A stretch of DNA of 63,599 nucleotides from a virus. The stretch is taken from positions 1-63,599 of the IMG/VR virus record IMGVR_UViG_3300045988_069679. One strand, given 5' to 3'. The notes below the pieces were generated by a model. The model had not been told where the DNA came from. It made no database searches and worked only from the letters and a program-made list of their open reading frames with translations. Shown one piece after another: positions 23,929 to 59,810 of the stretch. Positions within the stretch are counted from its first letter, which is position 1. The number at the start of each line of letters is the position of its first letter. The position numbers and the translations under genes are program-made.

Positions 23929-24002
23929 TACACCCTACTGGGCTTGAACCAGTGACACTACGCTTAGAAGGCGTATGCTCTATCCAACTGAGCTAAGAGT
24001 GT
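23929..24002 (-). tRNA. tRNA-Arg (anticodon UCU)
   Basis: Hand-folded 74-nt cloverleaf. Acceptor ACACTCT/AGGGTGT, D arm GCTC-AGTTGGATA-GAGC, anticodon arm TACGC-CTTCTAA-GCGTA, T arm ACTGG-TTCAAGC-CCAGT. Confidence 0.85.
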
Positions 24003-24058
24003 ATATGGTGGGAATAACCACCATTTAGTATTCACAAGAGTGATACCTATCAACCAAA

Positions 24059-24130
24059 AGTACGTAGTGGGATTTGAACCCACGAATGGTGCTTTTGCAG
24101 AGCACAGCGTTACCACTTCGCCATACGTAC
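24059..24130 (-). tRNA. tRNA-Cys (anticodon GCA, U73 discriminator)
   Basis: Hand-folded 72-nt cloverleaf. Acceptor GTACGTA/TACGTAC, anticodon arm GTGCT-CTGCAAA-AGCAC, T arm GTGGG-TTCAAAT-CCCAC. Confidence 0.85.
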
Positions 24131-24260
24131 AAAACCCACAGAGGAAAGGATAACTCTGTAGGAAAAACTTGAAAGGAGGCTTGGCGATTATGCCAAAGGA
24201 AATGTTCCACACCATTCTCGCCTATGGTGGGAGGGAACTATAATCTCGTTATCTAGTATA

Positions 24261-24719
24261 TCACACAGAAACAAACTTGTCAAGTGTGAAAAGTCCAATG
24301 AGAATCGCTTCTGCTTCATCATCATTCTTGACTTTATACCCTAGGCTTGTACACAGAGCTATAGCCTTTCGTTTGGCTTCCTCTCGTTTGCCATTTAGTG
24401 AGAATTGCTTTCTCCACACAGTAGGTGATACAAATTCCACAAGAGAATTATTAAGCTCTCTAAGAACCATTCCTTGCACAATCGCTAACATCACTAGTGT
24501 TTTCTGATTTGAGATGACTTTAAGCTCTTCAATCACTACTTTGTCGAACTTTCCATACTTCTCACAGAGCAATCTCACAAATTCTGCCATGTATTGACCT
24601 CTCACCGTAAAGTCTTTATCCTGTGAGCTTATAGTACCATAATCAATCACAGAACCATTACTTATCACACAGTAGCCAGAACTCTTTGTGGAAAGGTCAA
24701 GAGATAAAATCTTAACCAT
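24261..24719 (-). CDS. ruvC: RuvC-like Holliday junction resolvase (152 aa)
   Basis: MVKILSLDLSTKSSGYCV...VVIEEL...NDDEAEAILIG matches the RuvC-fold acidic motifs of Gram-positive phage resolvases. The ATG at 24719 is the leaderless start. Confidence 0.75.
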   Translation of the reverse strand: MVKILSLDLSTKSSGYCVISNGSVIDYGTISSQDKDFTVRGQYMAEFVRLLCEKYGKFDKVVIEELKVISNQKTLVMLAIVQGMVLRELNNSLVEFVSPTVWRKQFSLNGKREEAKRKAIALCTSLGYKVKNDDEAEAILIGLFTLDKFVSV

Positions 24720-24725
24720 GAATAA

Positions 24726-24754
24726 ATTATAACACACACAGAAGAGAATGTCAA
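24726..24754 (-). promoter_or_regulatory. Consensus sigma-A promoter TTGACA-17-TATAAT, 6 nt upstream of the RuvC ATG (leaderless mRNA)
   Basis: Minus strand reads CCTCTTGACAttctcttctgtgtgtgtTATAATttattcATG. Confidence 0.7.
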
Positions 24755-24801
24755 GAGGTAATTATAAATACACTCAACTGTGCGGAGCTTGTATCGTCCC
24801 C

Positions 24802-24836
24802 AAAAAATGTTTGCAACTCGATTGCGAACATTTTGC
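24802..24836. promoter_or_regulatory. Hairpin A: 11-bp AT-rich stem flanked by A/T tracts (terminator/attenuator or palindromic operator); inverted copy of 33680..33712
   Basis: AAAATGTTTGC-9 nt-GCGAACATTTT. On the minus strand it is followed by TTGGGG. Confidence 0.6.
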
Positions 24837-24923
24837 TTGGTCTATCAGAGGGCTATTATGTAATCTTTTATTGCTTATACAAGAATACTAGTATTCTAGT
24901 ATATATACTAGAGTATATAGTAT

Positions 24924-24952
24924 ATAATATAGCTAACTTATACTTCCATCAA
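24924..24952 (-). promoter_or_regulatory. Promoter TTGATG-17-TATTAT inside the inverted copy of the 33.5-kb repeat unit
   Basis: Read on the minus strand; homologous to the two TTGGTG-17-TATAAT/TATATT promoters at 33458 and 33565. Confidence 0.5.
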
Positions 24953-25011
24953 AAAGGTACATATTCTACATATCGCACAAAAGGATAAATAGAATAATCT
25001 ACACTTACCTC

Positions 25012-25040
25012 TTGCTTTTTATTTTCGACTGTGCTATACT
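25012..25040 (+). promoter_or_regulatory. Early promoter TTGCTT-17-TGcTATACT
   Basis: ACCTCTTGCTTtttattttcgactgTGcTATACT, 20 nt before the ATG at 25060. Confidence 0.6.
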
Positions 25041-25059
25041 ATTCTATGAGGACTTAATC

Positions 25060-26007
25060 ATGAACACAAAAATTATTTGGCACTTTGACAGTGATAAAAA
25101 AGAACGTGGAACTACCTTTGCCACAAAGGAAGAATACACACTTGCTATCCAATTTGAAGATAAAGCACTAGTAGACCAAGACTTAAAAACTCAAGTCAAA
25201 AAATTCATTAAAACTCGCTACAAGGTCTCTGTGCATCAGCTAACCTATCGCGAAAGACCAATGTACACAGTAAGCAAGCTATTTGGAGGAGCTAAAGGGC
25301 TGTGTGAAGAGCTTAACCTTTCCACAGAAGAGCTCTGTGAGCTATCCAATTCCTTTTCTTCCCCACACAAGAAATCAAGGCTTATTGTGGACTACTTACT
25401 CCCTGTGCTTAAAGACCAAGACTTTGCTAATTGGTTTTACTCTACTGTGTATAACCTATACAACAACACCACAGAACCACTTTTACTTGTACCTAGTTCA
25501 TTACCACAAGAGTTCTATGAGTGGCTATCAAAAGAAAGTAGATACACAAAGCTAATACCTTTCCTAACAGGTAAATCTATACCTAGTGGAGTAATGATAG
25601 GTGATTACATATATGAGCATAGAGGAAGCTACTCACAGCTCTATGATGCCTATTCTTCATTACTTTCAGAATACATTACACAAGAGAGTGGAAAAGCTCC
25701 ACAGTACATAAACAGCCTTCAACAGAGAACCACAATGGCTCTTAAGAAGTATGGTGTACTAGTATCACATAAGCTAGAGTCTATGGGGCTTAATTATAAG
25801 TCTTATATGAGTATGTTCTATACCACATCACCTAGTATGACACATTACATTAGCACCATAGCCAATGAGGTAGGATTTGACCCTTATGATATGCTATACA
25901 CCATTGTTCTCAATACAGTAGAGTATTATGCCAAGAAGCCTAGTCATAAGAGGAATGTAACACTAGACTACTTTAAAGAACAGAAGATACAGCTCAAGAG
26001 ACTGTAG
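25060..26007 (+). CDS. Hypothetical early protein (315 aa)
   Basis: ORF track 25012..26007. The ATG at 25060 has a GAGGA RBS; upstream codons overlap the promoter. Confidence 0.7.
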   Translation: MNTKIIWHFDSDKKERGTTFATKEEYTLAIQFEDKALVDQDLKTQVKKFIKTRYKVSVHQLTYRERPMYTVSKLFGGAKGLCEELNLSTEELCELSNSFSSPHKKSRLIVDYLLPVLKDQDFANWFYSTVYNLYNNTTEPLLLVPSSLPQEFYEWLSKESRYTKLIPFLTGKSIPSGVMIGDYIYEHRGSYSQLYDAYSSLLSEYITQESGKAPQYINSLQQRTTMALKKYGVLVSHKLESMGLNYKSYMSMFYTTSPSMTHYISTIANEVGFDPYDMLYTIVLNTVEYYAKKPSHKRNVTLDYFKEQKIQLKRL

Positions 26008-26094
26008 GAATTACCTATGGTCTTTTTTATTACGCTTTAGGATAATATAGAATATTTATATGGAGTAGCATGTTTTTGAATGATTTAGGTTATA

Positions 26095-26216
26095 GGTGAA
26101 TAGGGGAATTTGGGTAGGGTAGTAGGTAACACATTTTTTAATCACCCCTTTTGTTGGTGAATAGAGAAAACCAAGCCCTCTCTCCCTCGTTCCATTTTTT
26201 AATCACCCCTTTTGTT
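26095..26216 (+). repeat. Two tandem 61-bp units: GGTGAATAG + variable core (G-rich in unit 1, C-rich in unit 2) + CATTTTTTAATCACCCCTTTTGTT
   Basis: Read directly; units are 26095-26155 and 26156-26216. Confidence 0.8.
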
Positions 26217-26480
26217 ATATTAAATTTTAATTGCCATTGCCTTTGCCCTAACATGATACTGCTTTTAGGCTAATTGATTGGAATGGAAGGGTAAATAAAA
26301 TACATTTATATAGATGTCAAATATAATTTACCACCAAAATCATACCTAACCAAACCAAAACCCCAAAAATAAAAACGTAAATACTTGACTTTCTTAAGCT
26401 ATAGCACTCGCTTATATATATCAAATTATCCTTGTCTCTCTATGCTTTACCCTCATTCTTCTCTCTTGAAAAATTCCTTA

Positions 26481-26527
26481 ATTTACTATACTAAAAATTA
26501 TTTCATTTACTATACTAAAAATTATTT
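26481..26527 (+). repeat. Two direct 23-bp repeats ATTTACTATACTAAAAATTATTT (period 24), followed by ATCGCAA x2 at 26531-26550. Candidate operator sites.
   Basis: Read directly, about 40 bp upstream of a consensus promoter. Confidence 0.8.
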
Positions 26528-26568
26528 TAAAATATCGCAAATTATCGCAAGAAATTGTTAAATTTCTA

Positions 26569-26597
26569 TTGACAAGCCTATTTCTTAATGATATAAT
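26569..26597 (+). promoter_or_regulatory. Consensus promoter TTGACA-17-TATAAT
   Basis: TTGACAagcctatttcttaatgaTATAAT. Confidence 0.75.
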
Positions 26598-26680
26598 AGT
26601 TATAGTTAAAAGATAACAGAAAATAGTCTAGAAACGTTGATTTATTAACTAAAATATTCTAAATTATTCTAACTTATCTC

Positions 26681-26709
26681 TTGACAAATAAACTGAAATA
26701 GTTTATAAT
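26681..26709 (+). promoter_or_regulatory. Consensus promoter TTGACA-17-TATAAT
   Basis: CTCTTGACAaataaactgaaatagttTATAAT, 45 nt before the ATG at 26755. Confidence 0.75.
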
Positions 26710-26754
26710 AAATACATAAAATAAAACAAGCCTAAAAGGCAAAGGAGAAAAATC

Positions 26755-27012
26755 ATGAAAACACCTAATTTCAATTATGCAAATACAGAGCTTTACACCT
26801 CTCGTTATTCTCAATATGGCTATTGCCTATTTGTGATGGTAGACATTGAAAATGGAACCTTTGTATTTGGACAAAGCAACTCTACTTGTGTATCTCTACA
26901 TAGAGCAGAGTACAGAGTTATGGAAAGAATGACTCAAAAACAGGTTAGAGACTTAAGAGATAGATTTCTACAACGTGGATACACTCAACTAACTACTAAA
27001 GACTTTATTTAA
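26755..27012 (+). CDS. Hypothetical early protein
   Basis: ORF track; RBS AAAGGAGA. Confidence 0.7.
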   Translation: MKTPNFNYANTELYTSRYSQYGYCLFVMVDIENGTFVFGQSNSTCVSLHRAEYRVMERMTQKQVRDLRDRFLQRGYTQLTTKDFI

Positions 27013-27302
27013 AGCCTTCTAGGTTCAAGCCTAGCGCCAATCTTGCAAGGGATTGGGGGCTATACTCTTCTAAAGTGCTACAATCATATTAAGCATTATA
27101 ATACTAGTCAAAGCCCTCTTAATGTAAGGGATATGCTTTCTAGACTTGCTTAAAACATTGCAAAAAGCAGACCAGAAGAAAAAGTAAACAGATTGCCCCT
27201 ATAAAGCTATAAAAAGGGGGAATAGTCAGAAGATAGCACTGTACTAACGCAAAATATAATAAAATCGAAGGGAATAGCCTAAAGGCTATAGAGGTTTAAT
27301 TT

Positions 27303-27596
27303 ATGCTTGAGTTTAAAACTCGTTATACTAGCGTTATAATTGATGAATTAAGCTCTGTAAAAAGAATTGGTAAATATCCAATAAACTACAAAGCTGTTAC
27401 ACGTTTAGACGGTAGAAGAGTCACAGCAAAAGAAAACTATGTAAGCTTTATCTTTGAAAAATATGAGATTCTGATAGCTTGTAATAACTCTAAAAAAGTT
27501 TGTGAATTGATTGAAGAAACTTTCTTGAATCCTATCAAGTATAAACACAATAAGACAACCATAAAAGCTGAAAGCATTAACATTTATAAGATTTAA
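27303..27596 (+). CDS. Hypothetical early protein
   Basis: ORF track; RBS AGAGG. Confidence 0.65.
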   Translation: MLEFKTRYTSVIIDELSSVKRIGKYPINYKAVTRLDGRRVTAKENYVSFIFEKYEILIACNNSKKVCELIEETFLNPIKYKHNKTTIKAESINIYKI

Positions 27597-27656
27597 AGGT
27601 TTGGGGATTCTTTCCCCTTACCTAACTATTAAAGAATAAGAAAGAGAGAAAAGAAA

Positions 27657-27935
27657 ATGGCAAATTTTTATAGCACAAATTGCGTTGTAGAGTTTTTACA
27701 AGGGAATAACAAGATAGAAAGCTATAAAGTTACAAAGGTGGAACTATTAGACTTTAATGACATGGAAGGTTGGAATTATTTAGTACATGTTTCTGTTAAG
27801 TCTATAGAGGGTTATAAAAACAAACGAATCAAGTTAGTTACAAATAGCACATACTTAGAAGGCTTTGAATGGAATGATGAGGAAACACAAGTAGCTAATT
27901 TTGATAACTGGTTAGCTGAATTAGTAGGAGTGTAA
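27657..27935 (+). CDS. Hypothetical early protein
   Basis: ORF track. Confidence 0.65.
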   Translation: MANFYSTNCVVEFLQGNNKIESYKVTKVELLDFNDMEGWNYLVHVSVKSIEGYKNKRIKLVTNSTYLEGFEWNDEETQVANFDNWLAELVGV

Positions 27936-28025
27936 GGGGGTAATTTTACCCCTTGGGATTTAAGAAATTGAAAAACTGTATAAGTATAATCAACTAACAC
28001 AAAAAAAGAAAGTAGAGAAATTAAA

Positions 28026-28319
28026 ATGAAATTATTAAAGGGTTTGGGCATTGCTTTGGTATTGTTTTACGCTTGGGTATTTATAGCAGTCAACTTTGTT
28101 ACTGTTGGGGTAAATAGTAAAGATACAGCACAAGAAAGCACTAAATCTGTAGAAGAAACTAGCTTGAAAGCAGAAATGAAAGACGCTGAGATTTTGAGCA
28201 AGTTCTACAATGAAAAAGGGTATTTTATTGTAGTATACAATGGAATCACAAAAGCCCCTGAGGTGCTTCAGGTTGATTTTTCTGAGTGGGAGCTGATGAG
28301 TATTGGGGAACTGTATTAA
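28026..28319 (+). CDS. Hypothetical early membrane/secreted protein (N-terminal TM or signal)
   Basis: ORF track; hydrophobic LGIALVLFYAWVFIAVNFVTV. Confidence 0.65.
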   Translation: MKLLKGLGIALVLFYAWVFIAVNFVTVGVNSKDTAQESTKSVEETSLKAEMKDAEILSKFYNEKGYFIVVYNGITKAPEVLQVDFSEWELMSIGELY

Positions 28320-28372
28320 AACGCTGTAGGGGGCTTGTGAGAGCCTTCTAGGGCTATGCTAGAGGTAAATAT

Positions 28373-28627
28373 ATGAGTAGATATGATAAAATGCTGGTAG
28401 TTCATATCTTTGGGGGTTCTGCTATTTTCAAAAGTCCTTCTGGAAAATTATTAGAGGTTGAAGCTAGCCCTTTTGGATATGTAAAAATGTTAAAAGATAT
28501 AAACTTTTTATACTTTGAGTTCTTTGTATTAGATAATTTTATAAATACTTTTTACATGGGTTATAGTTATGAAGAGTTTTACAAACAATTAAAAATTAGA
28601 ATGGGAATAGAACAAAATGAAAATTAA
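28373..28627 (+). CDS. Hypothetical early protein
   Basis: ORF track; RBS AGAGG. Confidence 0.65.
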   Translation: MSRYDKMLVVHIFGGSAIFKSPSGKLLEVEASPFGYVKMLKDINFLYFEFFVLDNFINTFYMGYSYEEFYKQLKIRMGIEQNEN

Positions 28628-28631
28628 AAAA

Positions 28632-28772
28632 ATGAAATTACTAAAATTTATGGCTTTGCCTTCTTTCTTGGGGTATAGTGTGTTAGCTAACCTAAACTAC
28701 ACTTTTTCGCTGATGATTCTTTGTGGATTTGTGGTTGTCACAGCCTTACAATTCATGTATGTTACAGACTAG
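28632..28772 (+). CDS. Small hydrophobic ORF (46 aa, MKLLKFMALPSFLGYSVLANLNYTFSLMILCGFVVVTALQFMYVTD), below the ORF-track cutoff
   Basis: Fills the gap between flanking genes and predicts two TM-like segments. No clear SD. Confidence 0.4.
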   Translation: MKLLKFMALPSFLGYSVLANLNYTFSLMILCGFVVVTALQFMYVTD

Positions 28773-28784
28773 GAGGGCATTAAA

Positions 28785-28997
28785 ATGAGAGAATACACAG
28801 CAAATAACGGAACAAAGGTAACTATACTAGGTAACACTTTAACTTGTGTCAGGGAGGGTCTTATTATGGTTTTCCCTAATGTGAAAATGACTTATGTATC
28901 TAAAGTTGGATTTATTGCAGATAATGGAATTTATAAAGTGTACCCAGAGTTAGATAGTGGGAAAATTGAAAGTTTTAATATAGAAAAGGTTGAATAA
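28785..28997 (+). CDS. Hypothetical early protein
   Basis: ORF track; RBS AGGAGGG. Confidence 0.7.
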   Translation: MREYTANNGTKVTILGNTLTCVREGLIMVFPNVKMTYVSKVGFIADNGIYKVYPELDSGKIESFNIEKVE

Positions 28998-29209
28998 TGG
29001 ATAAGAGAACTTTAAAAAATGCTTGGCAAACTGCTAGAAATAAGCGTGTGACTGCTGAGGTATTAGACACATTTCTGATTGAGGTTTTTGTGTTATACAG
29101 TTATGACCACAAAGAAGAGCCTCCTTTCTTGCTTGGTAAGGATTTACAGAAGGCATTGAATTTACCTTTTGCTGTTAAGTTTAGACAGCTTGAGAGGGTT
29201 CTTGGATAA
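28997..29209 (+). CDS. Hypothetical early protein
   Basis: ORF track; TAATG coupling. Confidence 0.65.
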   Translation: MDKRTLKNAWQTARNKRVTAEVLDTFLIEVFVLYSYDHKEEPPFLLGKDLQKALNLPFAVKFRQLERVLG

Positions 29210-29406
29210 TGAAAATAGAAAAAGATATGATAATTAGGTGCATACGCAACATTGGAAGGCATAAAGAGGGTCTTATATTTAAAGTTGTAGACGTTGGGGG
29301 TTCTCTTGCCTTTGCTATAAATGTAAATGATAAAAACGATAAGATGATACTCTATAGGTATTCAGAGCTTGTAGAAGAGGTAGGGAAAGGAGATTTCTAT
29401 GTTTAA
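29209..29406 (+). CDS. Array-1 paralogue a (65 aa, single small beta-barrel-like unit, ends GDFYV)
   Basis: ORF track; TAATG coupling; C-terminal motif shared with the next three genes. Confidence 0.7.
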   Translation: MKIEKDMIIRCIRNIGRHKEGLIFKVVDVGGSLAFAINVNDKNDKMILYRYSELVEEVGKGDFYV

Positions 29407-29614
29407 TATTGGGGACATAATTGAACTAACCAAAAATGTATTATTTTATAAACAAGGCTTAATTTGTAAAGTTTTAGAAATTGATGAAGATAATTCTAAT
29501 TATGGTTGGGTTGAAATTTTAAAGGATTCTAATGGTAAATTAGATGTAGGTAAGAGAAAACATGCAAACCTAACTATATTTAAGTTAGTAAGAAGGGGTG
29601 GTTTCTATGTTTAA
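29399..29614 (+). CDS. Array-1 paralogue b (71 aa, MFNIGDII..., ends GGFYV)
   Basis: ORF track; ATGTTTAA start/stop overlap. Confidence 0.7.
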   Translation: MFNIGDIIELTKNVLFYKQGLICKVLEIDEDNSNYGWVEILKDSNGKLDVGKRKHANLTIFKLVRRGGFYV

Positions 29615-29948
29615 GGTTGGCGATATAGTATGGGCTAAAAATAGTGGATATTCAATGACTTTCTATCATAGACCTTGCAAAGTATTGAGCTATAATAGTG
29701 AAGGTATGCGTGTTAGGATTATAGATAGTGGTAGCACCTTCACAGTGCAAGAATCTGTATTTGAGCTTGTTCCAGAAGGTGGAATACTTGACCCAGGTGA
29801 TAAACTTATCCACAAAGAATCTAAGGAAATGCTAGTTTTTACAGCGTATGTTGATTGTGATTTTATAAAGTGTAGAGACTCTTTTAATGAGGTAAAACAA
29901 TTTAAAATCCAAGAGGTAGAAAGGTTTAGGGAAATATTTTATGTTTAA
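29607..29948 (+). CDS. Array-1 paralogue c (113 aa, MFKVGDIVW...YHRPCKV, two-unit, ends EIFYV)
   Basis: ATG 29607 chosen by analogy: same ATGTTTAA junction and MFK start as its neighbours. Confidence 0.7.
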   Translation: MFKVGDIVWAKNSGYSMTFYHRPCKVLSYNSEGMRVRIIDSGSTFTVQESVFELVPEGGILDPGDKLIHKESKEMLVFTAYVDCDFIKCRDSFNEVKQFKIQEVERFREIFYV

Positions 29949-30285
29949 AGAAGGTGACATTGTATGGTGTACTGATGATAGATATAGAGTGACTAGTTAT
30001 CATAGACCTTGCTTAGTTAAGGGTTATGATAGTTTTGGTAGCTTATTACTACAAGCCTTTGACCAATCAGATTTAACAGAATATGACGTAAAAGAGAGAT
30101 ATTTTGAACTAGTACCAAGTTTTAAAGTATTAAAAGCTGGTCAAATGATTGGAATTATGGGATTAAGTAGGTTAGTTGAATTTAAAAAGTATAAAAATAA
30201 AGGTTATATTGAAGTAGCTGATGGTGATTGGTACTCAGAATACCATGTAAATGACATTATATTTGAAGAGAGGTTTTATATCTAA
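29941..30285 (+). CDS. Array-1 paralogue d (114 aa, MFKEGDIVW...YHRPCLV, two-unit, ends ERFYI)
   Basis: ORF track; ATGTTTAA junction. Confidence 0.7.
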   Translation: MFKEGDIVWCTDDRYRVTSYHRPCLVKGYDSFGSLLLQAFDQSDLTEYDVKERYFELVPSFKVLKAGQMIGIMGLSRLVEFKKYKNKGYIEVADGDWYSEYHVNDIIFEERFYI

Positions 30286-30629
30286 TGCTTGCAAACTTAA
30301 CAGGTCATGATATTTACATTGTGGATAGACATGGCACAGTAGTAACCACTATACAGCCTTGTGAGACGGAAGAGCCTTTGAGAGCTGAGGTTACACTAAG
30401 AAGACAGAAAAAAATCGAAGGAATCAAGCTAACTAAGTTATATTATAGGTCTAATATCACAGAGCGTAAAATGCAAGAATTGCTGAATAAGTATGATGGT
30501 ATTATTGTATCTAAGATAACAGCAGAGTGCTTGAAAGAGCTAGGATACACAGATAAGATTTATATCACAGGTAGAAAATTCTATAAGCATGGGGAACTTA
30601 TCGGTGTGAAAGAATTATGTATATTATAA
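30285..30629 (+). CDS. Hypothetical early protein
   Basis: ORF track; TAATG coupling. Confidence 0.65.
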   Translation: MLANLTGHDIYIVDRHGTVVTTIQPCETEEPLRAEVTLRRQKKIEGIKLTKLYYRSNITERKMQELLNKYDGIIVSKITAECLKELGYTDKIYITGRKFYKHGELIGVKELCIL

Positions 30630-30647
30630 GGTAAAGGAAAGAAGAAA

Positions 30648-32189
30648 ATGAAAATGCAATCAGTATCAAAAGAAAATATGGAAACATTCAAGGAATCAAT
30701 GCTATCAAAGAAAGAGTTTGAGGAGCTTGTGGGAGAGGTAAAAACAAACAAAGAGCTTGCTGAAAAGCTTGCACAGATTGAAGCACCAGCAGACATTGAA
30801 GGTTATGGAGCTGACTTTGTGGAAGCTGTTAAGACCTTAAACAGTCATACAGATTTTGTTGAGATTATCCGTCAATGGGATTTAGTAGATAAACTAAGAG
30901 AGTATCAAAGCTTATTCCCTAGTGGATATACTTTCAATGATATTTACCTAACTAGTCCTATTCCTACTGTTCTTGTGGGATTGGATAAGGAACGCACACT
31001 TTTAACATATCCTGAAAAGTGGTATGAAGACCACAAAGAAGAGCTTTTAAAAGTGCTTGACTCACTGATTTACCGTAAGAAAAATGAAGGTGTGGCTTAC
31101 ACAGAGCCTAAGAATAAAATCAAAGACCTTGAAAGATTTATTTCAGATAACAACCTAAACAGATACCCTAAAGTGTTCTCTTACATGCTTATGAGAAGCA
31201 CTAATGAAAGGTATACTACTGATGGACATAAAGTAGACATTTTAGGCAAGTTTCAAGGTTATGTGTCTAAGAAATTTGATAAAAAGATTCAAGGAATCAA
31301 TGAAAATTTAGTAAAAATTACTTATGCAAGCATGGTAAAAGACTACTTTGGTCTTGATTTAGATGAATCAAAAAATGCTCCTAAGTTGGCTAAACAGCTT
31401 AAAAAGGCTGGTATTGACTACACAGAAGAAGAAATCCGTCACTTTGGAGAGGTTAAGTTCTGGTGGGAAGATTGGAACAAGGTTAACATTTCCACAATTA
31501 GCAATAGTGTCTTTCGTGCAAGAGACTTGTGGGTAGATAAAGCAGACTTTAATATCCCAGCTCTTGTGGACGATTGGGCTTTCAACGATAGCTGTAACAA
31601 GTATGATAGTAGCGCTGGTTCTGATACTCATCTTGTGTTAAGAGCTTTCGGATTTGAATACCTCAAAGGGTATTCTGTAGGATATACAAAAGATAATGGA
31701 TATGCCTTATACCCAGCTATGAGAACTTATTTCTTGAGAAAAGACAGCGATATTGCTCATGCTGGTACTTATGCAGACTTTAACGGTACAAGAGCCAAAG
31801 CATGCTATGAATTTACTACAGTCCTCTTGTGTATCTTCTTTAACAAGAAAGTAGATGACTTTTCTAAAATCTATGGTATGAATATTGACTGTAAATCTTA
31901 TGATGACCCACACTATAATAATATCAACTTTTGGGCTAACCAAGCTAAGAATGAATACGCTAAATGGGGTACAGCACAGCTTTTCAGAGACTATGGTAAA
32001 GAAGATATGCTACACTACATTAGTAACAATGAGAGTCTACGAAGCACACTCTATGACCGCTTAGATACTTTTGAGCTAAGAGCATTGAAACAAAAATACA
32101 TGAACTTTACTGGTGTACAACTAACAGAGAAAGCACCAGAAGTTAAAGAACTAACACCACTTACTAAAGAACTATTGGAATTGATTTAA
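30648..32189 (+). CDS. Large early protein of unknown function (513 aa)
   Basis: ORF track; RBS AAGGAAAGAAG; no motif recognised. Confidence 0.75.
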   Translation: MKMQSVSKENMETFKESMLSKKEFEELVGEVKTNKELAEKLAQIEAPADIEGYGADFVEAVKTLNSHTDFVEIIRQWDLVDKLREYQSLFPSGYTFNDIYLTSPIPTVLVGLDKERTLLTYPEKWYEDHKEELLKVLDSLIYRKKNEGVAYTEPKNKIKDLERFISDNNLNRYPKVFSYMLMRSTNERYTTDGHKVDILGKFQGYVSKKFDKKIQGINENLVKITYASMVKDYFGLDLDESKNAPKLAKQLKKAGIDYTEEEIRHFGEVKFWWEDWNKVNISTISNSVFRARDLWVDKADFNIPALVDDWAFNDSCNKYDSSAGSDTHLVLRAFGFEYLKGYSVGYTKDNGYALYPAMRTYFLRKDSDIAHAGTYADFNGTRAKACYEFTTVLLCIFFNKKVDDFSKIYGMNIDCKSYDDPHYNNINFWANQAKNEYAKWGTAQLFRDYGKEDMLHYISNNESLRSTLYDRLDTFELRALKQKYMNFTGVQLTEKAPEVKELTPLTKELLELI

Positions 32190-32202
32190 AAGGAGAATTA
32201 AC

Positions 32203-33327
32203 ATGAAACACACATTTATTGACGTACTAACTAAAACACAAACAGAAATGCAAGAATGGCTTCCAGAAGTATTGGCTGATTATGGTTATCAGATTAAGGT
32301 AACAGATTACATGATTCAAGCTATTAGCTCAGAAGAGAATCAGCCTTGTCTTGTGGCTCACCTAGACACAATCAACACTAAGCGCAAGACCTACAACTAC
32401 GGTACTTACTATCAAACTACAGCAACTACAAGCACAGAAAAAGACCGTACCCCAGAGGTACAAGATATTCTAGTCACAGAGCGCTATATCTTATTGTCTC
32501 CTGAGTGTAAATCTAGTATTCAATGTTTGGGTGCTGATGACAGAGTTGGAGTTAAGACTATCCTAGATATTCTTGAGATGGGTCTCAGACCTCATATTTT
32601 GTTCACTACAGACGAAGAAGTGGGTTGTGTGGGTTCTAGGAAGGCATTAGAAGAAAATGCGCTAGAGGGGCTAAAAATGGCTTCTATGCTTATCCAAATT
32701 GACCGTGGTGTTCATAAGCGTTCTTGGCATGAAATGGTGACTTATGATTTTGACCCTGAATCACACAAGGAAATCTTTGATGAATTGGGTAAAACTTATA
32801 CAATGGCTACAGGTTCATACACAGACGTTGCAGTTCTTGGGCCACATTTAGACAAGCCTATTGTGAATGTATCAGCAAGCTATCGCCATGAGCATACCAC
32901 AGACGAATTTATCAACCTAGATGCCTATGAATATAACACACAAGGACTAATCAAGTTCATTAAATGGGCACAGGAACAAGACACAAGCGAATGGAAGTAT
33001 GTAGCTAAGTATGTACCACCAAAACCAGTAACAACATACACACGTACCTCAGACTTTACTAACTACCCTCCTAAGTTTGGGATTGCAAGACCTAGCTTGT
33101 GGGTAAAAGGTAAGGGTTATGGAAAAGCAGAAGACTACCTCACAGAAATGTGTAAGTCACAGTTCATGAGACCTAAAGACATCTTTGATAGATTCATTGA
33201 TGAAGGATATGATGAAGAAGAGCTACTTGACTGTTTAGACTTAGCTTATAGCCTTGGAGCTGAGTTCACAAACATGTGGCAATTAAACTATATTCTTGAA
33301 GGTAAGATTTACCAACACGTTGAATAA
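32203..33327 (+). CDS. M28/M20-type Zn metallohydrolase-like protein
   Basis: Ordered motifs AHLDT, GADDRVG, TTDEEVGCVGS, IQIDRG, YRHEHT resemble the M28 metal ligands (HxD, D, EE, D, H). Confidence 0.5.
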   Translation: MKHTFIDVLTKTQTEMQEWLPEVLADYGYQIKVTDYMIQAISSEENQPCLVAHLDTINTKRKTYNYGTYYQTTATTSTEKDRTPEVQDILVTERYILLSPECKSSIQCLGADDRVGVKTILDILEMGLRPHILFTTDEEVGCVGSRKALEENALEGLKMASMLIQIDRGVHKRSWHEMVTYDFDPESHKEIFDELGKTYTMATGSYTDVAVLGPHLDKPIVNVSASYRHEHTTDEFINLDAYEYNTQGLIKFIKWAQEQDTSEWKYVAKYVPPKPVTTYTRTSDFTNYPPKFGIARPSLWVKGKGYGKAEDYLTEMCKSQFMRPKDIFDRFIDEGYDEEELLDCLDLAYSLGAEFTNMWQLNYILEGKIYQHVE

Positions 33328-33332
33328 AAGAA

Positions 33333-33362
33333 AAAAGGAGAGCTAATTTGCTCTCCTTTTAA
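33333..33362 (+). terminator. Intrinsic terminator ending the 25-33 kb early operon
   Basis: AAAAGGAGAGC-taattt-GCTCTCCTTTT. Confidence 0.8.
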
Positions 33363-33457
33363 GGTTACTTTATGTACTTATAAGTATATCACACACAGCA
33401 GAATCTTGCAAATTAAAAACTCTTTTAGGTTAAAACTTTTATAGGTTATGTACCTTT

Positions 33458-33486
33458 TTGGTGGAAATATAAGTTTTCTTTATATT
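33458..33486 (+). promoter_or_regulatory. Promoter TTGGTG-17-TATATT (repeat unit B1)
   Basis: TTGGTGgaaatataagttttcttTATATT. Confidence 0.5.
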
Positions 33487-33564
33487 ATATATACTCTTGT
33501 ATATGTGATAAATAAGTACATAGTCTACTTTATTCTACACAGATATTATAGCGTATGTATACTT

Positions 33565-33593
33565 TTGGTGGATATATAAGTTTTCTTTATAAT
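33565..33593 (+). promoter_or_regulatory. Promoter TTGGTG-17-TATAAT (repeat unit B2)
   Basis: TTGGTGgatatataagttttcttTATAAT. Confidence 0.55.
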
Positions 33594-33679
33594 ATACTAT
33601 ATACTAGTAATTAGTATACTTGTATATGTGATAAAAGAATACATACCATATGACTAAAATACCAAACCCTAGACCAAGC

Positions 33680-33712
33680 AAAATGTTCGTAGTCAAGCTA
33701 CAAACATTTTTT
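33680..33712. promoter_or_regulatory. Hairpin B: 13-bp stem with one mismatch followed by TTGGGG (terminator/attenuator or operator); inverted copy of 24802..24836
   Basis: AAAATGTTCGTAG-tcaag-CTACAAACATTTT. Confidence 0.6.
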
Positions 33713-33744
33713 GGGGACAATATAAAATTTCTTGTAGTTGACTA

Positions 33745-33773
33745 TTGCTTTCTGTGTGTGATTGTGCTATACT
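33745..33773 (+). promoter_or_regulatory. Promoter TTGCTT-17-TGcTATACT for the replication operon
   Basis: TTGCTTtctgtgtgtgattgTGcTATACT, with the same -35/-10 as the 25012 promoter. Confidence 0.6.
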
Positions 33774-33806
33774 AGATTTATCAATTAACGAATGAGAGGT
33801 TACTTT

Positions 33807-34691
33807 ATGTATTTCAAAGTACATGTAAATATGTTTCAGCACAAAGATTTAAAGAACTTATCTGACATATTCTTGTATAGCTTTCTGTGTGGATTTGCCA
33901 AGGAAGACCAAAAAGAGGTTTATTCTCACTATACTAACCAGCAACTTGTGGATATTTTTGGATGTTCATCACAAACAATCTCTAACTCAATCACTCGTCT
34001 TGTGAAGCTAGGATTGGTTAAACGTTATGAGGATACTCGTTTCAGTGAATCTAACCATGATTTCTTCTGTAGACGAACTATTGTGACAGATACTACATTG
34101 TACCGTAGCTATGCTGGAGAGCATTATCTTTCTGTGAACACTAATTGGTTATCAGATTGGAAATTACCTTTCAGAGCTGTGCAGTTACTAGCATTGTTTT
34201 GGTCTAGCTATTTCATGAATAACTCTAGAATTATTGAGTTTACTACTGAGCATGTAATGGACATTATGGGAAATGTAAATTACAGAACGTATATCAATAA
34301 CTATAACCTTTTAGAAGAGCTAGGATTGATTAAAGTATACTCAGAGAAACATGAGCATTATAAATGTATTGAGCTTTGTGTGGAATACCTTGGGGAAGAG
34401 GTAAATCCAGAAGAGGTTCTAGGTTCTGCTGTGGAAACTGAAAGCATTAAGTCTTCTGTGGGAAAGCTAAAGTCTGTGGTATCTTACTTTGTTAAATTCC
34501 TAAGACAGAAGAGTAGTAAGGTAGTTAAGAATCTGTTACACAAGCTAGACCCTTCAATCTCTGTGAAGAGAACACTAGAGCCTTTGTGGCAAGCCTTTGA
34601 CTATTATGACAGACTATCAATCAGGTCAAGAATCCCAGAAGATGCAGACCCTAGAGATGGTTATTTTGTACAAGGAGAAGGATATGCCTAA
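33807..34691 (+). CDS. Winged-helix DNA-binding protein, replication initiator candidate
   Basis: Segment QQLVDIFGCSSQTISNSITRLVKLGLVKR looks like an HTH/wHTH. First gene of the replication operon. ATG 33807 has a GAGAGG RBS. Confidence 0.4.
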   Translation: MYFKVHVNMFQHKDLKNLSDIFLYSFLCGFAKEDQKEVYSHYTNQQLVDIFGCSSQTISNSITRLVKLGLVKRYEDTRFSESNHDFFCRRTIVTDTTLYRSYAGEHYLSVNTNWLSDWKLPFRAVQLLALFWSSYFMNNSRIIEFTTEHVMDIMGNVNYRTYINNYNLLEELGLIKVYSEKHEHYKCIELCVEYLGEEVNPEEVLGSAVETESIKSSVGKLKSVVSYFVKFLRQKSSKVVKNLLHKLDPSISVKRTLEPLWQAFDYYDRLSIRSRIPEDADPRDGYFVQGEGYA

Positions 34692-36444
34692 GAATAAGTT
34701 TATTGAACTCTTACAACGAAACTTTGGAGAAAAAGACCTTGTTAACTTTGGGGTAAATAAAAAGTATTACCTAGAGCGTAAGGCTAAAGAAGACCCTGAG
34801 TTTGAGGATAGATTCAGTCGTGACTTTGAACAAGCAAAGCACTTTGTGAAAAATATTGGTTCACAAGTTAAAGCTCTAAGAAACAAGTATGACCTATACT
34901 TATCATTCACACATACGGGTGGACAAGAGCGTAAGAAAACCAATGCACAAGACACTTATATCATTGCACAAGACATTGATGGAGCACCTATTCCTACAGA
35001 CCTACCTCCTAGCTATTATTGGGAAACAAGTCCTAATAAGTATCAAGGGGTATGGGTATTAGATAACAAGGTGAATCCACAAGAGCATGAGGTTCTGTGT
35101 AGAAAACTTGTTAAAAAGTATGGTTTTGACCCTTGTGGTGTGGATATTGTACATCTCTATCGAATCCCTGGTACTGTGAATCACAAGTATGCTACAGACT
35201 TTAAGGTTAGTGGTATGAAGGGTGATGGTACTGTGTACCGTAAGCGTGAATTTGTGAAGTTCCTAGAGGACGTAGACATTTCTACACGCAAGATGGCTGA
35301 TGAAGGGGGTATTGAGTATATCCAATATGACTTAGATGCTGTGTTATCTGAGTATAATGCCTTTCCTGAGTTCACTCATCAGCTTGCTATTGATAGGTCT
35401 GAATGGGCTTGGAAATTAGAGCAGAAGATGATTTTTGGTGGAGCTAGTAAGGAAGAGGTTAAGTTTGTACTCTTAAATGCTCCTGACAAGATGGCTAAGT
35501 TCACAGAAGAGACTGTAGATGCAGAAGTACACAGAGCCTTTGCTAAATCAGAAGAAGGTGAAGAAGAAGCTGTAGAAGCTGTTACAGAGCTTCCTAAGAA
35601 AGTAACCATTGAGGAGAATAAGGGTAAGACCTTATCTACTGTGAGACAAAAAGGGGAGAAGAAAAAGAACAAGTTTAATATCGTCAGAGTTGATGAGATT
35701 GAACCTTTTGACCCTACAGACTTTTGGCTCATTGAAGATTTCTGGGAGAATGGTTCTGTGGGAGTTATTGGGGCACCTTCTAAATCCTTCAAGTCAACCT
35801 TTGCCCTTAACTTAGCTTGTGCTGTGGCTACTGGTAAGCCTTTTGATGGTAGAGAAGTTAAGCAAGGTGCTGTGCTGATTATTCAAGGCGAAAATAACTT
35901 GTCTATGGAACAGCATAAGATTTATGCCATTACTGGTTCTGAAACACCTCCTCCTATTTATTTTGTGGAAGATGCTATTAACATGCAACAAATGCACAAG
36001 TTAGAGAATGACATTAGAGAGTTAGAAATTAAGCTCTTAATCATTGACCCTATGTATTTGCTCTTTGGTAGTGGAGATATTAACCGTCACCAAGATATTG
36101 TAGAACGGTTAGAGATTCTCACAAAACTATCAAAGAATACTGGTTGTGCTGTGATGTTGATTCACCACAGTAGAAAGCTAGAGCGTGGAGCTAAGATTCA
36201 AACTGCTGATATGTATGGTTCAGCCTTCATTGAGGGTTGGTATGAGTCTATGATTCTCCTTCAACGTAAAACCAATAACTCAAGTACCCTTACTACATAT
36301 TTCCGTAACCATAAATCAGGAGATGTGTATGACCTTGTGGTAGATGATAACATGGGTTGTAAAGCCTATGCTCGCAAGGGAGAAAGTGCTTATGAAGCTC
36401 CTGAGACAGACTTTGGTGTATTGGCAGGTGATGAAGATGACTAA
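34684..36444 (+). CDS. Primase-polymerase (RepB/prim-pol-like N-terminus) fused to a RecA-fold AAA_25-type helicase/ATPase domain
   Basis: AQDIDG, YQGVWVL and RIPGTVNHK in the N-terminal half. GAPSKSFKST (Walker A) and LLIIDPM (Walker B) in the C-terminal half. ATG 34684 has an AAGGAGAAGG RBS. Confidence 0.65.
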   Translation: MPKNKFIELLQRNFGEKDLVNFGVNKKYYLERKAKEDPEFEDRFSRDFEQAKHFVKNIGSQVKALRNKYDLYLSFTHTGGQERKKTNAQDTYIIAQDIDGAPIPTDLPPSYYWETSPNKYQGVWVLDNKVNPQEHEVLCRKLVKKYGFDPCGVDIVHLYRIPGTVNHKYATDFKVSGMKGDGTVYRKREFVKFLEDVDISTRKMADEGGIEYIQYDLDAVLSEYNAFPEFTHQLAIDRSEWAWKLEQKMIFGGASKEEVKFVLLNAPDKMAKFTEETVDAEVHRAFAKSEEGEEEAVEAVTELPKKVTIEENKGKTLSTVRQKGEKKKNKFNIVRVDEIEPFDPTDFWLIEDFWENGSVGVIGAPSKSFKSTFALNLACAVATGKPFDGREVKQGAVLIIQGENNLSMEQHKIYAITGSETPPPIYFVEDAINMQQMHKLENDIRELEIKLLIIDPMYLLFGSGDINRHQDIVERLEILTKLSKNTGCAVMLIHHSRKLERGAKIQTADMYGSAFIEGWYESMILLQRKTNNSSTLTTYFRNHKSGDVYDLVVDDNMGCKAYARKGESAYEAPETDFGVLAGDEDD

Positions 36445-40217: not shown

Positions 40218-40892
40218 ATGAAAGAACAAATTTTAAAAAGTCTTGAGACCATGAGCAAAGCTCAGTTAAGTAAAGAAATTGGTATCACACCATTCATCTT
40301 AAACAAGTTTATTTCATGCAAGATGGAAACAATTAAAACAGAGTATTTAGATAAAGTGAAAGCCTATTATGGAGAAGAGGAAGAGCCTAAACAAGATAGA
40401 GCTACACTCTCTGTAGAAGTACCTGAGCTTTCTAAAGAAGAAATTAAATTTTTCAATACACTACAAACAAGTAGTATTCATGATAAAATTAGCACACTAG
40501 GTTACATTAACTATGTATTTACGTCTAATGCAAGACAATCACAGCCTTGGTTTATCCGTCTAGCACGAGGTAAGAAGGCTGATGAGATTAAAGACTTAAT
40601 TAAACGATTAGGATTGGCTGTTCTGTGTGGACGTTATAATGAGAAGGAATCTGAAAAAACTTATGCAATTAAGTTGCCATCAGAGCATTACTTCTGTAAA
40701 TATGGTAATGGAAGCACTGGTTGGTCTGTAGAACCTAATAAGTTCACAGTCAAGTCAACTAATAAGGAAGAACTAGCTAAAGAGTATCCTGAATTTAAAG
40801 ATTTCATTGTGGAGCTTGGTGTGCTAATTGAGCATTACAATGGAAAGCCAAGAGGATATACAATTAGTGAGCGTACTAGGAAGAAGAATTAG
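40218..40892 (+). CDS. Protein with an N-terminal HTH-like segment (224 aa)
   Basis: ORF track; RBS AAAGGAG; MSKAQLSKEIGITPFILNKFI. Confidence 0.6.
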   Translation: MKEQILKSLETMSKAQLSKEIGITPFILNKFISCKMETIKTEYLDKVKAYYGEEEEPKQDRATLSVEVPELSKEEIKFFNTLQTSSIHDKISTLGYINYVFTSNARQSQPWFIRLARGKKADEIKDLIKRLGLAVLCGRYNEKESEKTYAIKLPSEHYFCKYGNGSTGWSVEPNKFTVKSTNKEELAKEYPEFKDFIVELGVLIEHYNGKPRGYTISERTRKKN

Positions 40893-59776: not shown

Positions 59777-59795
59777 ATATATATATATATATATA
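59775..59795. repeat. (TA)10 dinucleotide microsatellite running into the ATG of 59381..59776
   Basis: Read directly: 21 nt of alternating A/T. Confidence 0.95.
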
Positions 59796-59810
59796 CCTTG
59801 TTATAATAGT

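Follow-up and report, generated by a model that had tools for sequence, protein, structure and literature searches.

The window analysed here, the whole stretch of 63,599 nucleotides, comes from an uncultivated phage with a genome of about 63.5 kb and contains two inverted copies of a non-coding module made up of putative protein-binding boxes, an AT-rich core and a structured hairpin. Cassette A adjoins the resolvase and late genes, while cassette B adjoins the replication genes. Both sit amid divergent promoters and have the same layout, one or two units followed by the hairpin and then by a sigma-A promoter, P2 (Table 1).

Table 1. Features of the two cassettes and their flanks (positions in the window).
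Feature	Position	Strand	Remarks
RuvC-like Holliday-junction resolvase	24261..24719	-	first gene 3' of cassette A
P2A	24726..24754	-	consensus sigma-A promoter TTGACA-17-(TGTGT)TATAAT; upstream of RuvC
Hairpin A	24800..24840	+	13-bp main stem, 5-nt loop, outer CCAA/TTGG stem
Inverted box closing unit A	24855..24872	-	degenerate; AATAAAAGATTACATAAT
AT-rich repeat core of unit A	24873..24939	-	nested palindromes CTAGTATATATACTAG and AGAATACTAGTATTCT
Box of unit A	24940..24964	-	ATATGTACCTTTTTGATGGAAGTAT; includes the TTGATG originally read as a -35 element
Pe, divergent promoter	25012..25040	+	TTGCTT-17-(TGTGC)TATACT; first early gene, ATG 25060
Leftward promoter	33383..33411	-	TTGCAA-17-(TGTGTGA)TATACT; divergent partner of cassette B
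Unit B2	33446..33527	+	complete extra tandem unit: box 33446-33470, core, inverted box; no hairpin
Unit B	33553..33647	+	box 33553-33577, AT-rich core 33578-33629, inverted box 33630-33647
Hairpin B	33674..33714	-	outer arms as in A; complete pairing on this strand
P2B	33745..33773	+	TTGCTT-17-(TGTGC)TATACT; wHTH initiator gene, SD 33794-33799, ATG 33807
wHTH protein	33807..34691	+	HTH_36; DnaD-like/replication-initiator PHROGs; candidate box binder
RepB'-like primase fused to AAA_25/DnaB-RepA-like helicase	34657..36444	+	candidate user of the hairpins

The inverted duplication proposed in the original prediction was borne out by blastn, by an inverted repeat finder and by counts in shuffled sequences. 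When the whole window was searched with cassette A, the sole matches were B (187 nt, 70% identity) and the extra unit B2 (61 nt, 84%, E 7e-13). The A-B alignment runs from 24963 to 24789 on the minus strand against 33554-33725 on the plus strand, with E values of 5e-21 to 3e-23. Arm pairs were found at 24789-24844/33670-33725 (56 nt, 88% complementary) and 24912-24968/33549-33605 (57 nt, 79%), and a third pair uses the extra copy at 33442-33489 (48 nt, 81%). Exactly two copies each of AGACCAAGCAAAATGTTCG and CAAACATTTTTTGGGGAC were counted in the window, one in A and the other in B, a number reached in none of 100 shuffles; for the box TTTTGRTGGNNNTATAAKTT there are three copies, in A, B and B2. 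Low-complexity AT noise does not account for the similarity, since the box and the hairpin are its most conserved parts and are found again in relatives. A real duplicated cassette therefore heads the RuvC/late-strand and replication operons in opposite orientations, as had been claimed. Several details required correction. The collinear span had been drawn from 24990 to 24726; similarity is real but begins at about 24968, and global identity across the whole span is 65%. Past the hairpin, A and B have little in common except promoter-type features and the CTGTGTGTG spacer. The extra tandem copy at B, described as partial, is present and lacks the hairpin alone. The interpretation originally attached to the duplication is partly supported, as discussed below.

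Both P2 promoters were found where they had been predicted and are credible. The RuvC ATG (24719) is the predicted +1 of P2A, implying a leaderless mRNA, and in every clade this ATG lies 6-7 nt past the -10. Pe is 79% identical to P2B across 33 nt, while the leftward promoter at B resembles P2A, spacer included. The replication gene had been predicted to start at 33792, whereas its ATG lies at 33807 (MYFKV, preceded by the SD GAGAGG). The cumulative GC skew has its minimum at 24-26 kb, weak evidence for an origin because it is confounded with gene orientation.

Each unit is an imperfect palindrome, in which two boxes surround an AT-rich core that contains short iterons. Conservation of the box covers 23 nt (consensus TATGTAYNYTTTTGRTGGWARTA; 62 distinct instances among relatives). 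At the position of A's degenerate inverted box, the L026 and L119 relatives have complete ones, and in the L026 clade the box and inverted box make a palindrome with 49-nt arms. The AT-rich cores, with duplex stability z values of 4.0-4.4 (about 4.2-4.3 for unit A), are within the genome's five least stable duplex spots; they are not the sole minimum, which counts against reading them as origins. The TTGRTG of the box is a plausible -35 element, and in most instances a TATAAT-like hexamer follows 16-18 nt 3' of it, so a promoter role is conceivable. However, the reading of the box as a first promoter (P1) is doubtful, because the box is conserved over its full length, recurs in inverted form at the opposite end of the unit and occurs as a solitary copy at 26325-26349 with no usable -10. 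In these respects it resembles a protein-binding site more than a -35 element.

About 130 related IMG/VR loci preserve the two-locus layout, and unit copy number varies from 1 to 3 among close relatives. Box-proximal sequences are specific to a clade, yet common to A and B within one genome. Two distant superclades have units of unrelated sequence, with TACTTAGTTAC iterons in one case and TATAAGATA...TATCTTATA palindromes in the other, and these units again lie at the RuvC/early divergent region and 5' of the replication genes. Thus, across three superclades with unrelated unit sequences, A matches B within each genome. That the unit can differ wholly between clades while A still matches B points to concerted evolution and to a single binding factor common to both, and the comparative data show the A/B pairing to be under selection. 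The protein in the initiator slot has only about 22% identity between superclades, compared with 66% for the adjacent primase-helicase; its divergence parallels the turnover of unit sequence, a co-variation not independent of overall phylogeny.

The hairpins, 41 nt in length, had been called identical. Their outer arms are the same in A and B, but the inner stem differs, GCAA/TTGC in A being replaced by GTAG/CTAC in B through two compensatory changes. As the two copies in one genome differ and yet stay paired, it is the structure, not the sequence, that is read. Across 12 distinct variants the reverse strand is paired in 100% of cells, and four pairs show compensatory changes. One-sided changes are limited to U-A<->U.G on the reverse strand; at these places the opposite strand has C.A mismatches. 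Perfect pairing is confined to the strand antisense to the downstream genes, that is, the template strand of the downstream operon; in A this is the plus strand, whose main stem is completely paired, including one G.U/G.T. With DNA parameters the reverse strand folds better by 0.7-2.3 kcal/mol in every asymmetric variant, whereas in the forward RNA a C.A mismatch is conserved in the stem, which in three variants contains two mismatches next to each other. The bias reflects few independent events (one ancestral U.G, one U-A to U.G and one U.G to U-A). The hairpin is selected for structure. A coding mini-ORF was considered for the hairpin and rejected, as the ORF is not conserved (frameshift in L032, no ATG in L016). 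The L026 clade has the hairpin at A alone, indicating that the copy at B is dispensable, and no such hairpin was found in the two more distant superclades.

The product of the gene following the wHTH gene suggests what might use such a hairpin. Its primase domain matches Pfam RepB_primase (36.4 bits, cutoff 24.3), and homologues carry PF16793+PF13481. When an AF2 model (pLDDT 82) was submitted to Foldseek, the best PDB match was RepB' (3h20, E 2.6e-10) and the second was the RepB'-DNA complex (3h25); the helicase part matched RSF1010 RepA (1g8y) weakly. The primase domain, as modelled, is RepB'-like in fold. RepB' is the RSF1010 primase and starts at two 40-nt inverted-repeat ssi hairpins on complementary strands (PMC8567376).

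Taken as a whole, the cassettes look less like two promoters than like a replication origin in two parts. Our preferred reading, offered tentatively and with rather more doubt than conviction, is that they are a pair of origin-type modules in inverted orientation, in each of which initiator boxes are combined with an unwinding element and an ssi-like hairpin for priming. In each unit, two inverted boxes of about 23 bp would flank a readily melted, repeat-rich AT core. We infer that the wHTH initiator encoded beside cassette B would bind the boxes and open the core. The 41-nt palindrome on the gene-proximal side, for which a perfect hairpin is predicted on the downstream operon's template strand alone, could then, once unwound into single-stranded DNA, act as the start signal for the RepB'-type primase-helicase. 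DNA synthesis would leave A leftwards and B rightwards, in the direction in which the operon headed by each cassette is transcribed, and the flanking divergent sigma-A promoters may aid the opening of both modules. We propose that A and B have stayed similar because both are targets of the same phage proteins.

The transcription-control cassette of the original prediction is a serious but unlikely alternative to such an origin. There, the box would be the -35 region of a phage-regulated promoter P1, whose RNA would carry the hairpin as a signal (a processing site, a nut/put-like antitermination signal or an attenuator) and pass P2 into the operon, so that the late-strand and replication operons would be co-regulated. 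This agrees with the spacing of the hexamers in most boxes and with the position of the hairpin, which at both A and B always comes after the box and before the operon and is followed by a T6 run on the forward strand. Precedents exist in lambda nutL/nutR and HK022 putL/putR, inverted RNA hairpin signals heading divergent operons. On the other hand, the hairpin is completely paired only on the strand opposite P1/P2 transcription, the U-run would be sequestered by the outer CCAA/TTGG stem, P1 transcripts could not express a RuvC that is leaderless from P2A, and conservation of the box extends far beyond a -35 element. What is more, the distant superclades retain two-locus units without a P1-like promoter, and along the minus strand from RuvC and the tRNAs to the terminase genes we found no terminator-like site for an antiterminator to overcome. 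The same P1-like promoters, with the hairpin and T6 run about 115 nt 3' at both loci, could alternatively define two diverged small RNA genes, in which the hairpin terminates an RNA of about 115 nt acting as a regulator or origin primer. Origin transcripts occur in phages T7, T4 and c2, and the idea is compatible with an origin role, but it is improbable, given that the sequence from box to hairpin is poorly conserved among clades, that B2 and the extra A units of relatives have P1-like boxes with no hairpin, that the hairpin is strand-biased and that it matches no Rfam family.

Somewhat less improbable than such RNA genes, although still quite unlikely, is an array of operators for a phage transcription factor other than the initiator, controlling Pe and P2A at A and the leftward small-RNA promoter and P2B at B, with the hairpin as a weak bidirectional intrinsic terminator that shields the operons from read-through. 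Divergent sigma-A promoters of related sequence do flank both cassettes, dimeric regulators suit palindromic box pairs, a weak Cro/C1-type HTH protein is encoded at 40218-40892, and the A-run 5' of the hairpin together with the 3' T-run is typical of bidirectional terminators. However, the stem is AU-rich with just 3 G-C pairs and was not called by a terminator scan, covariation of an outer stem that pairs the T-run is unexpected in a terminator, the boxes do not overlap the promoters but are 45-100 nt away from them, variable-copy AT-rich iteron cores are more typical of origins, and a DNA-binding domain could be recognised in none of the early-module proteins. A switch by inversion of the 8.7-kb early module, for which the inverted repeats of about 200 bp had been thought suitable, is hardly credible. 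The repeats contain identical stretches of 19 and 18 nt, the concerted evolution of A and B implies recombination or gene conversion between them, and recombination proteins are encoded (Sak4-like, PD-(D/E)XK, RuvC). Nevertheless, RuvC and the first early gene are adjacent and divergent in all 30 related contigs that hold both, none of which has the peptidase end beside RuvC; no serine/tyrosine recombinase or invertase was found among the ORFs scanned; and the one odd junction, in L137, uses a different 11-nt repeat inside genes and truncates both.

Like nut and put, the phage elements are inverted and hairpin-forming and head two divergent operons that bracket a central module. Nut and put sites, however, act as RNA on the transcribed strand, 3' of the operon promoter, whereas the phage hairpin lies 5' of P2 and is best paired on the non-transcript strand, and we found no boxA-like element, N/Q-like protein or proximal terminators in this phage. 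An AT-rich centre flanked by inverted initiator boxes amid divergent promoters is also seen in herpesvirus oriS/oriL and polyomavirus origins, and herpes simplex virus has multiple inverted origin copies per genome; these are eukaryotic viruses with unrelated proteins, and the analogy is one of layout only.

For the origin reading, the closest precedents appear to be RSF1010 ssiA/ssiB and SPP1 oriL/oriR. The IncQ plasmid RSF1010, whose oriV with ssiA/ssiB is served by RepA, RepB' and RepC, likewise combines an initiator, a RepB'-fold primase and a RecA-fold hexameric-type helicase, and its hairpins are read as single-stranded DNA (PMC8567376). The phage hairpins differ: with a 13-bp stem and an outer stem they are longer than the 21-nt hairpin of the plasmid, to which their sequence is unrelated. 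Whereas the ssi hairpins are neighbours within a single oriV, those of the phage are separated by 8.7 kb, and each is accompanied by a box/AT unit of its own. The phage primase and helicase are fused, one clade (L026) has a single hairpin, and priming at the phage hairpins is our proposal. SPP1 has no sequence relationship with the cassettes and uses a DnaB-type helicase, a loader and host primase; this phage encodes instead a RepB'-like primase-helicase fusion and a PolA of its own. The phage copies are, moreover, inverted, placed amid divergent promoters and built of palindromic rather than direct boxes, each with an added conserved hairpin. In both genomes, nevertheless, two distant origin-type copies occur in a lytic Firmicute-type phage, each with an AT-rich unwinding element and initiator-binding repeats, bound by the initiator at both SPP1 copies (PMC6316719) and predicted to be so here. 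One copy lies at the initiator gene and the other is intergenic, bracketed by transcription signals on the structural side. SPP1 also encodes a Holliday-junction resolvase, an exonuclease, an annealing recombinase and an SSB for the switch to concatemeric replication (PMC6316719, PMC3485210), and the counterparts of this set in our phage are RuvC, PD-(D/E)XK, AAA_24/Sak4-like and DUF669 proteins.

We compared the region of cassette A, the copy upstream of the RuvC gene, with the whole genome by BLASTN. The only matches were cassette B, upstream of the wHTH initiator gene (187 nt, 70%, E 5e-21), and B2, an extra unit beside B that lacks the hairpin (61 nt, 84%, E 7e-13). The repeat finder returned the inverted arms 24789-24844/33670-33725 (56 nt, 88%) and 24912-24968/33549-33605 (57 nt, 79%), and a third pair involving the extra copy (33442-33489). 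The inverted duplication described in the original prediction is thus borne out. The hairpin arms are exact duplicates in A and B and are absent from the rest of the window; 3' of the hairpin, the likeness of A and B is limited to promoter-type features. We conclude that A and B are a genuine, conserved and non-trivial pair of cis-elements with a putative function, and that the best-supported mechanism differs from the one first proposed for them.

The components of the cassettes are listed in the table. P2A, the sigma-A promoter before RuvC, is a perfect consensus promoter. The divergent promoter of the first early gene, Pe, resembles P2B (the sigma-A promoter before the initiator gene), and the leftward promoter at B resembles P2A, spacers included. 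Because each cassette has a divergent promoter on its far side, A and B form the cores of divergent-promoter regions. In all clades examined, the RuvC ATG lies 6-7 nt past the -10 element of a consensus promoter (24719-24754, minus strand) with no Shine-Dalgarno (SD) sequence. Since this ATG is the predicted +1 of P2A, the RuvC mRNA is expected to be leaderless. The GTG start assigned to RuvC by the ORF finder (24737) falls within P2A. For the initiator, the longest ORF starts at ATG 33792, while relatives and an SD sequence, GAGAGG (33794-33799), indicate that the true start is ATG 33807 (MYFKV...).

Positions of the cassette components and of the surrounding features
Feature	Position	Strand	Remarks
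Box	24964->24940 (A); 33553-33577 (B); 33446-33470 (B2, extra)	A -; B and B2 +	23-25 nt
Core between boxes	each cassette		AT-rich, short repeats, nested palindromes
Degenerate inverted box	24872->24855 (A); 33630-33647 (B)	A -; B +
Hairpin	24840->24800 (A); 33674-33714 (B)	read toward downstream gene	41 nt, 13-bp main stem
P2 sigma-A promoter	gene-proximal end of each cassette		after hairpin
Pe divergent promoter	25012-25040	+	far side of A; drives first early gene
Leftward promoter	33411->33383	-	far side of B; followed by strong terminator, 33360->33333
Likely small antisense RNA, ~50 nt	33411->33326	-	predicted target 33790-33815, initiator mRNA
Minus-strand arm	24719 down to 1, then 63353 to 50139	-	RuvC, two tRNAs, terminase, portal, tail genes
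Plus-strand arm	25060 to 50109	+	opens with 8.3-kb block of small orphan genes

The ends of the window share an exact 55-nt overlap (1-55 = 63545-63599), which makes it a circular assembly of ~63,544 bp; it is a complete phage genome assembled as a circle. Several related contigs in IMG/VR have their break point inside cassette A and show a 55-nt overlap of the same kind. The many IMG/VR contigs ending there had suggested genome termini at A, an idea that we rejected because those contigs and the window carry 55-nt end overlaps typical of circular assemblies. Beyond the orphan block, the plus arm encodes the wHTH initiator, the primase-helicase, PolA, a PD-(D/E)XK nuclease, DHFR, dUTPase, a Sak4-like AAA_24 protein and DUF669. 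The nuclease, the AAA_24 protein and DUF669 form a recombination set (42311-43120 and 45690-46849) that, together with RuvC, resembles the SPP1/Sak4-type toolkit for recombination-dependent replication. The ~16 proteins of the early module (25060-33327) have no significant Pfam match; the exception in annotation is 32203-33327, which belongs to a PHROG 'peptidase' family. The promoters of the window are Firmicute-type and have extended -10 elements (TRTG). Within the 3' end of RuvC (24255-24283, minus strand), directly upstream of tRNA-Cys and tRNA-Arg (24130-23928), is a second near-consensus promoter, TTGACA-17-TGTGA-TATACT. Megablast of 24000-34500 against 50,697 phage records and tblastn with the initiator against phage records both gave zero matches, and the best identities were 39% for PolA (Clostridium phages) and 26% for TerL (Lactococcus P087 group); the phage therefore has no cultured relative from which annotation could be borrowed. 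A profile search of bacterial genome contigs with the primase alignment yielded no relatives and no prophage form.

DNA and protein searches of IMG/VR recovered ~130 loci from a family of 50-65-kb contigs, with identities to the window of 65-99% for the primase-helicase and 62-100% for RuvC. Both cassettes are present in close relatives, and the box is kept in the distant clades L015, L032, L016, L026/L090 and L029/L119, with the consensus TATGTAYNYTTTTGRTGGWARTA (62 distinct instances). The 15-30 nt 3' of the box are clade-specific, yet common to A and B within a clade. Each cassette has one to three units, the number varying at A too; the B unit of the L026 clade is a palindrome with 49-nt arms, and the A unit of L119 closes with a complete inverted box. 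Two further superclades have wholly different units, TACTTAGTTAC-type iterons and TATAAGATA...TATCTTATA palindromes, placed at the RuvC/early divergent region and again 6-8 kb away, upstream of the replication genes. One arm pair of L051 is 97% complementary over 32 nt. Sequence turnover with retention of the two-locus pairing is the hallmark of a pair of sites recognised by a single co-evolving factor. Between superclades, identity is ~22% for the initiator-slot protein, compared with 66% for the neighbouring primase-helicase, and initiator slot and unit sequence turn over together. The pair offers a clear case in nature of distant cis-elements and their putative binding protein evolving in concert. 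The product of the first early gene (25060-26007, 315 aa) is also ~22% identical between superclades, a divergence rate about that of the initiator.

The hairpin was compared in 12 distinct variants. On the strand antisense to the downstream gene (plus at A, minus at B), all 156 of 156 pair cells are standard pairs, and four pairs show compensatory double changes. One-sided changes are exclusively U-A to U.G or the reverse, and these appear on the sense strand as C.A mismatches, one in 11 of the 12 variants and two adjacent ones in three variants. Folding with DNA parameters made the antisense-strand hairpin more stable by 0.7-2.3 kcal/mol in every asymmetric variant, and RNA folds agree. This bias, G.T tolerated as against C.A, rests on few events and is compatible with single-stranded DNA or RNA of that strand. 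In the window, the inner stems of A and B differ (GCAA/TTGC and GTAG/CTAC), although the same machinery must be served, suggesting that shape rather than sequence is read there. The hairpin is limited to the superclade of the window, the L026 clade having the A copy only. Among the matches listed in a metagenome scan with the 16-mer AAGTTGCAAACATTTT, a short pattern, most were random and four were real, corresponding to known variants. Mini-ORFs across the hairpin (sense, MF[AV][IV][EK]LQTFFGD...; antisense, 47 aa) were rejected as coding because of a frameshift in L032, a missing ATG in L016 and, on the other strand, a stop in the B copy.

At its N-terminus, the primase-helicase has a domain that scores 36.4 bits against Pfam RepB_primase PF16793 (cutoff 24.3), and its database homologues carry PF16793 together with PF13481. 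In Foldseek searches with the AlphaFold model (pLDDT 82), the best PDB match was RepB' of RSF1010 (3h20, E 2.6e-10), followed by the AEP domain of S-2L PrimPol and then by the RepB'-DNA complex 3h25 (chain 3h25_A). For the helicase part, matches were to Twinkle and, weakly, to RSF1010 RepA. The modelled fold and the profile match indicate that the replicon encodes a RepB'-family primase, and the wHTH initiator gene adjoins B. The most economical reading of the cassettes, which we hold tentatively, is that the units are initiator-binding and unwinding elements and that the hairpins are start signals like ssiA and ssiB, the priming hairpins used by RepB'. The geometry of this reading fits: the strand that pairs well serves as template for the downstream operon, and a primer placed on it would be extended away from the unit in the direction of transcription, leftward from A and rightward from B. 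The cores of the units rank in the five least stable parts of the genome duplex without being its unique minimum, and cumulative GC skew has its minimum at 24-26 kb. The skew is uninformative because it tracks gene orientation, with which it is confounded; together with the instability of the cores it gives non-specific support to an origin. The least stable duplex of the genome is at 59707-59810 (AT 82-89%, z 4.6-5.1), between the minus-strand ORFs 59381-59776 and 59838-63353.

The leftward promoter at B, TTGCAA-17-TGTGTGA-TATACT, is followed by a seed and the strong terminator, a layout that likely specifies a small antisense RNA. The initiator mRNA is complementary in its SD-AUG region to the seed, ACAUAAAGUAACCU (duplex of -23.2 kcal/mol; 0 of 500 shuffles as good), and the same layout, with clade-specific covarying complementarity, is found in L015, L016, L026, L029 and L032. 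It resembles the counter-transcript control of rep translation in plasmids, except that here the RNA would be encoded from a displaced copy of the ribosome-binding site. Within the early module there is also a 750-nt non-coding gap of very low duplex stability (26007-26755). It holds a solitary box (26325-26349, minus strand) kept in the relatives L076-L080, two exact 24-nt direct repeats, CATTTTTTAATCACCCCTTTTGTT, at 26132 and 26193, a 24-nt tandem repeat (26469-26516) and two perfect consensus promoters (26569-26597 and 26681-26709). This gap may serve as the principal promoter region for early genes, or as an alternative origin.

A fuller model, which we consider unlikely as a whole, is an oversized version of IncQ-plasmid replication with a split origin. 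Two inverted box/unwinding units 8.7 kb apart would each carry a single-stranded DNA hairpin at which the RepB'-type primase-helicase starts a leading strand co-directional with the operon, and synthesis of the initiator would be throttled by the small antisense RNA from its own ribosome-binding site. Boxes, hairpins and small RNA would then be one replication-control system, and we know of no description of such a combined system for a tailed phage.

The tandem-promoter cassette of the original prediction still has to be reckoned with, as a -10-like hexamer follows most boxes by 16-18 nt, the arrangement taken there for a promoter inside the box (P1). If correct, it would reduce the pair to neatly duplicated regulatory regions of an ordinary kind. 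However, it is at odds with the strand bias of the hairpin, with a box that extends over 23 nt and has inverted copies, with the solitary box in the early module, which lacks a -10, with the leaderless RuvC mRNA and with the distant superclades, which have no P1-like element. In its favour, lambda-type nut sites have the inverted layout seen in A and B. A nut- or put-type RNA element is expected in the transcript 3' of the operon promoter, folded on the transcribed strand and with terminators downstream. The hairpin, on the other hand, lies upstream of P2, would be transcribed only from the putative P1 and has the conserved C.A mismatch on the sense strand, and there are zero terminator-like sites on the minus strand from 24719 to 18373, that is, from RuvC and the tRNAs to the terminase genes. 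It is also less likely to be a simple terminator, given that covariation is seen in the outer 4-bp stem (CCAA/TTGG to CCAT/ATGG), in which the T-run is paired. Its main stem is rich in A-U, with three G-C pairs, the T-runs on both strands are paired by the A-run and the outer stem, and the terminator scan made no call.

An operator array with an insulator and a pair of small-RNA genes are both possible readings. Scans of Rfam 15 at gathering and E-value thresholds found two tRNAs only, leaving the hairpin unmatched. Inspection by eye and by scans in several clades revealed no conserved reverse-strand promoter upstream of the hairpin, which favours single-stranded DNA over RNA as the form of the structure. 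Inversion of the early module, also suggested originally, was not supported: 30 of 30 related contigs have one arrangement, and no invertase or recombinase domain was found in the ORFs scanned, those of the early module and its neighbours outside the structural arm. In one related contig, L137 (IMGVR_UViG_3300011982_000145, 1-600), codons 1-87 of the first early gene run directly into RuvC codons 64-152, both in one orientation. They meet at an 11-nt inverted repeat, GAAGAGCTTAA (window 24520-24542 and 25294-25316); this is an inversion junction around cassette A. The contig may derive from a genuinely rearranged or defective genome, or may be a chimera of amplification or assembly.

To our knowledge, hardly any uncultivated phage has a known origin of replication, and the RepB'-type (AEP) primase-helicases that are common among these phages have no known start signal. 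A concrete origin candidate is conserved in this family, a box/AT-core unit with a strand-specific hairpin, present twice and evolving in concert. If confirmed, it would extend IncQ ssi priming and the two-origin layout of SPP1 to a new phage lineage and provide a sequence rule for finding origins of this type. Replication of RSF1010 is begun by RepB' at ssiA and ssiB, a pair of 40-nt inverted repeats that lie on complementary strands and fold into hairpins after the initiator and the helicase have opened the duplex (PMC8567376). The window likewise has two highly similar hairpin-forming sequences, one per strand (the L026 clade, with one copy, is an exception). The RSF1010 sites, however, lie in one compact oriV beside the iterons and contain a 21-nt hairpin, whereas the copies in the window are 8.7 kb apart, each with its own unit and a longer hairpin. 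In SPP1, one initiator binds two distant origin copies; the second has been proposed to be a barrier to replication forks which, together with a Holliday-junction resolvase, sets off the change to concatemeric replication (PMC6316719, PMC3485210). The window shares with SPP1 two separated copies of similar non-coding repeats with an AT-rich region, conserved in relatives. What is more, cassette A abuts the resolvase gene, and genes for a nuclease, an annealing protein and DUF669 are present, in parallel with a pathway of the SPP1 type.
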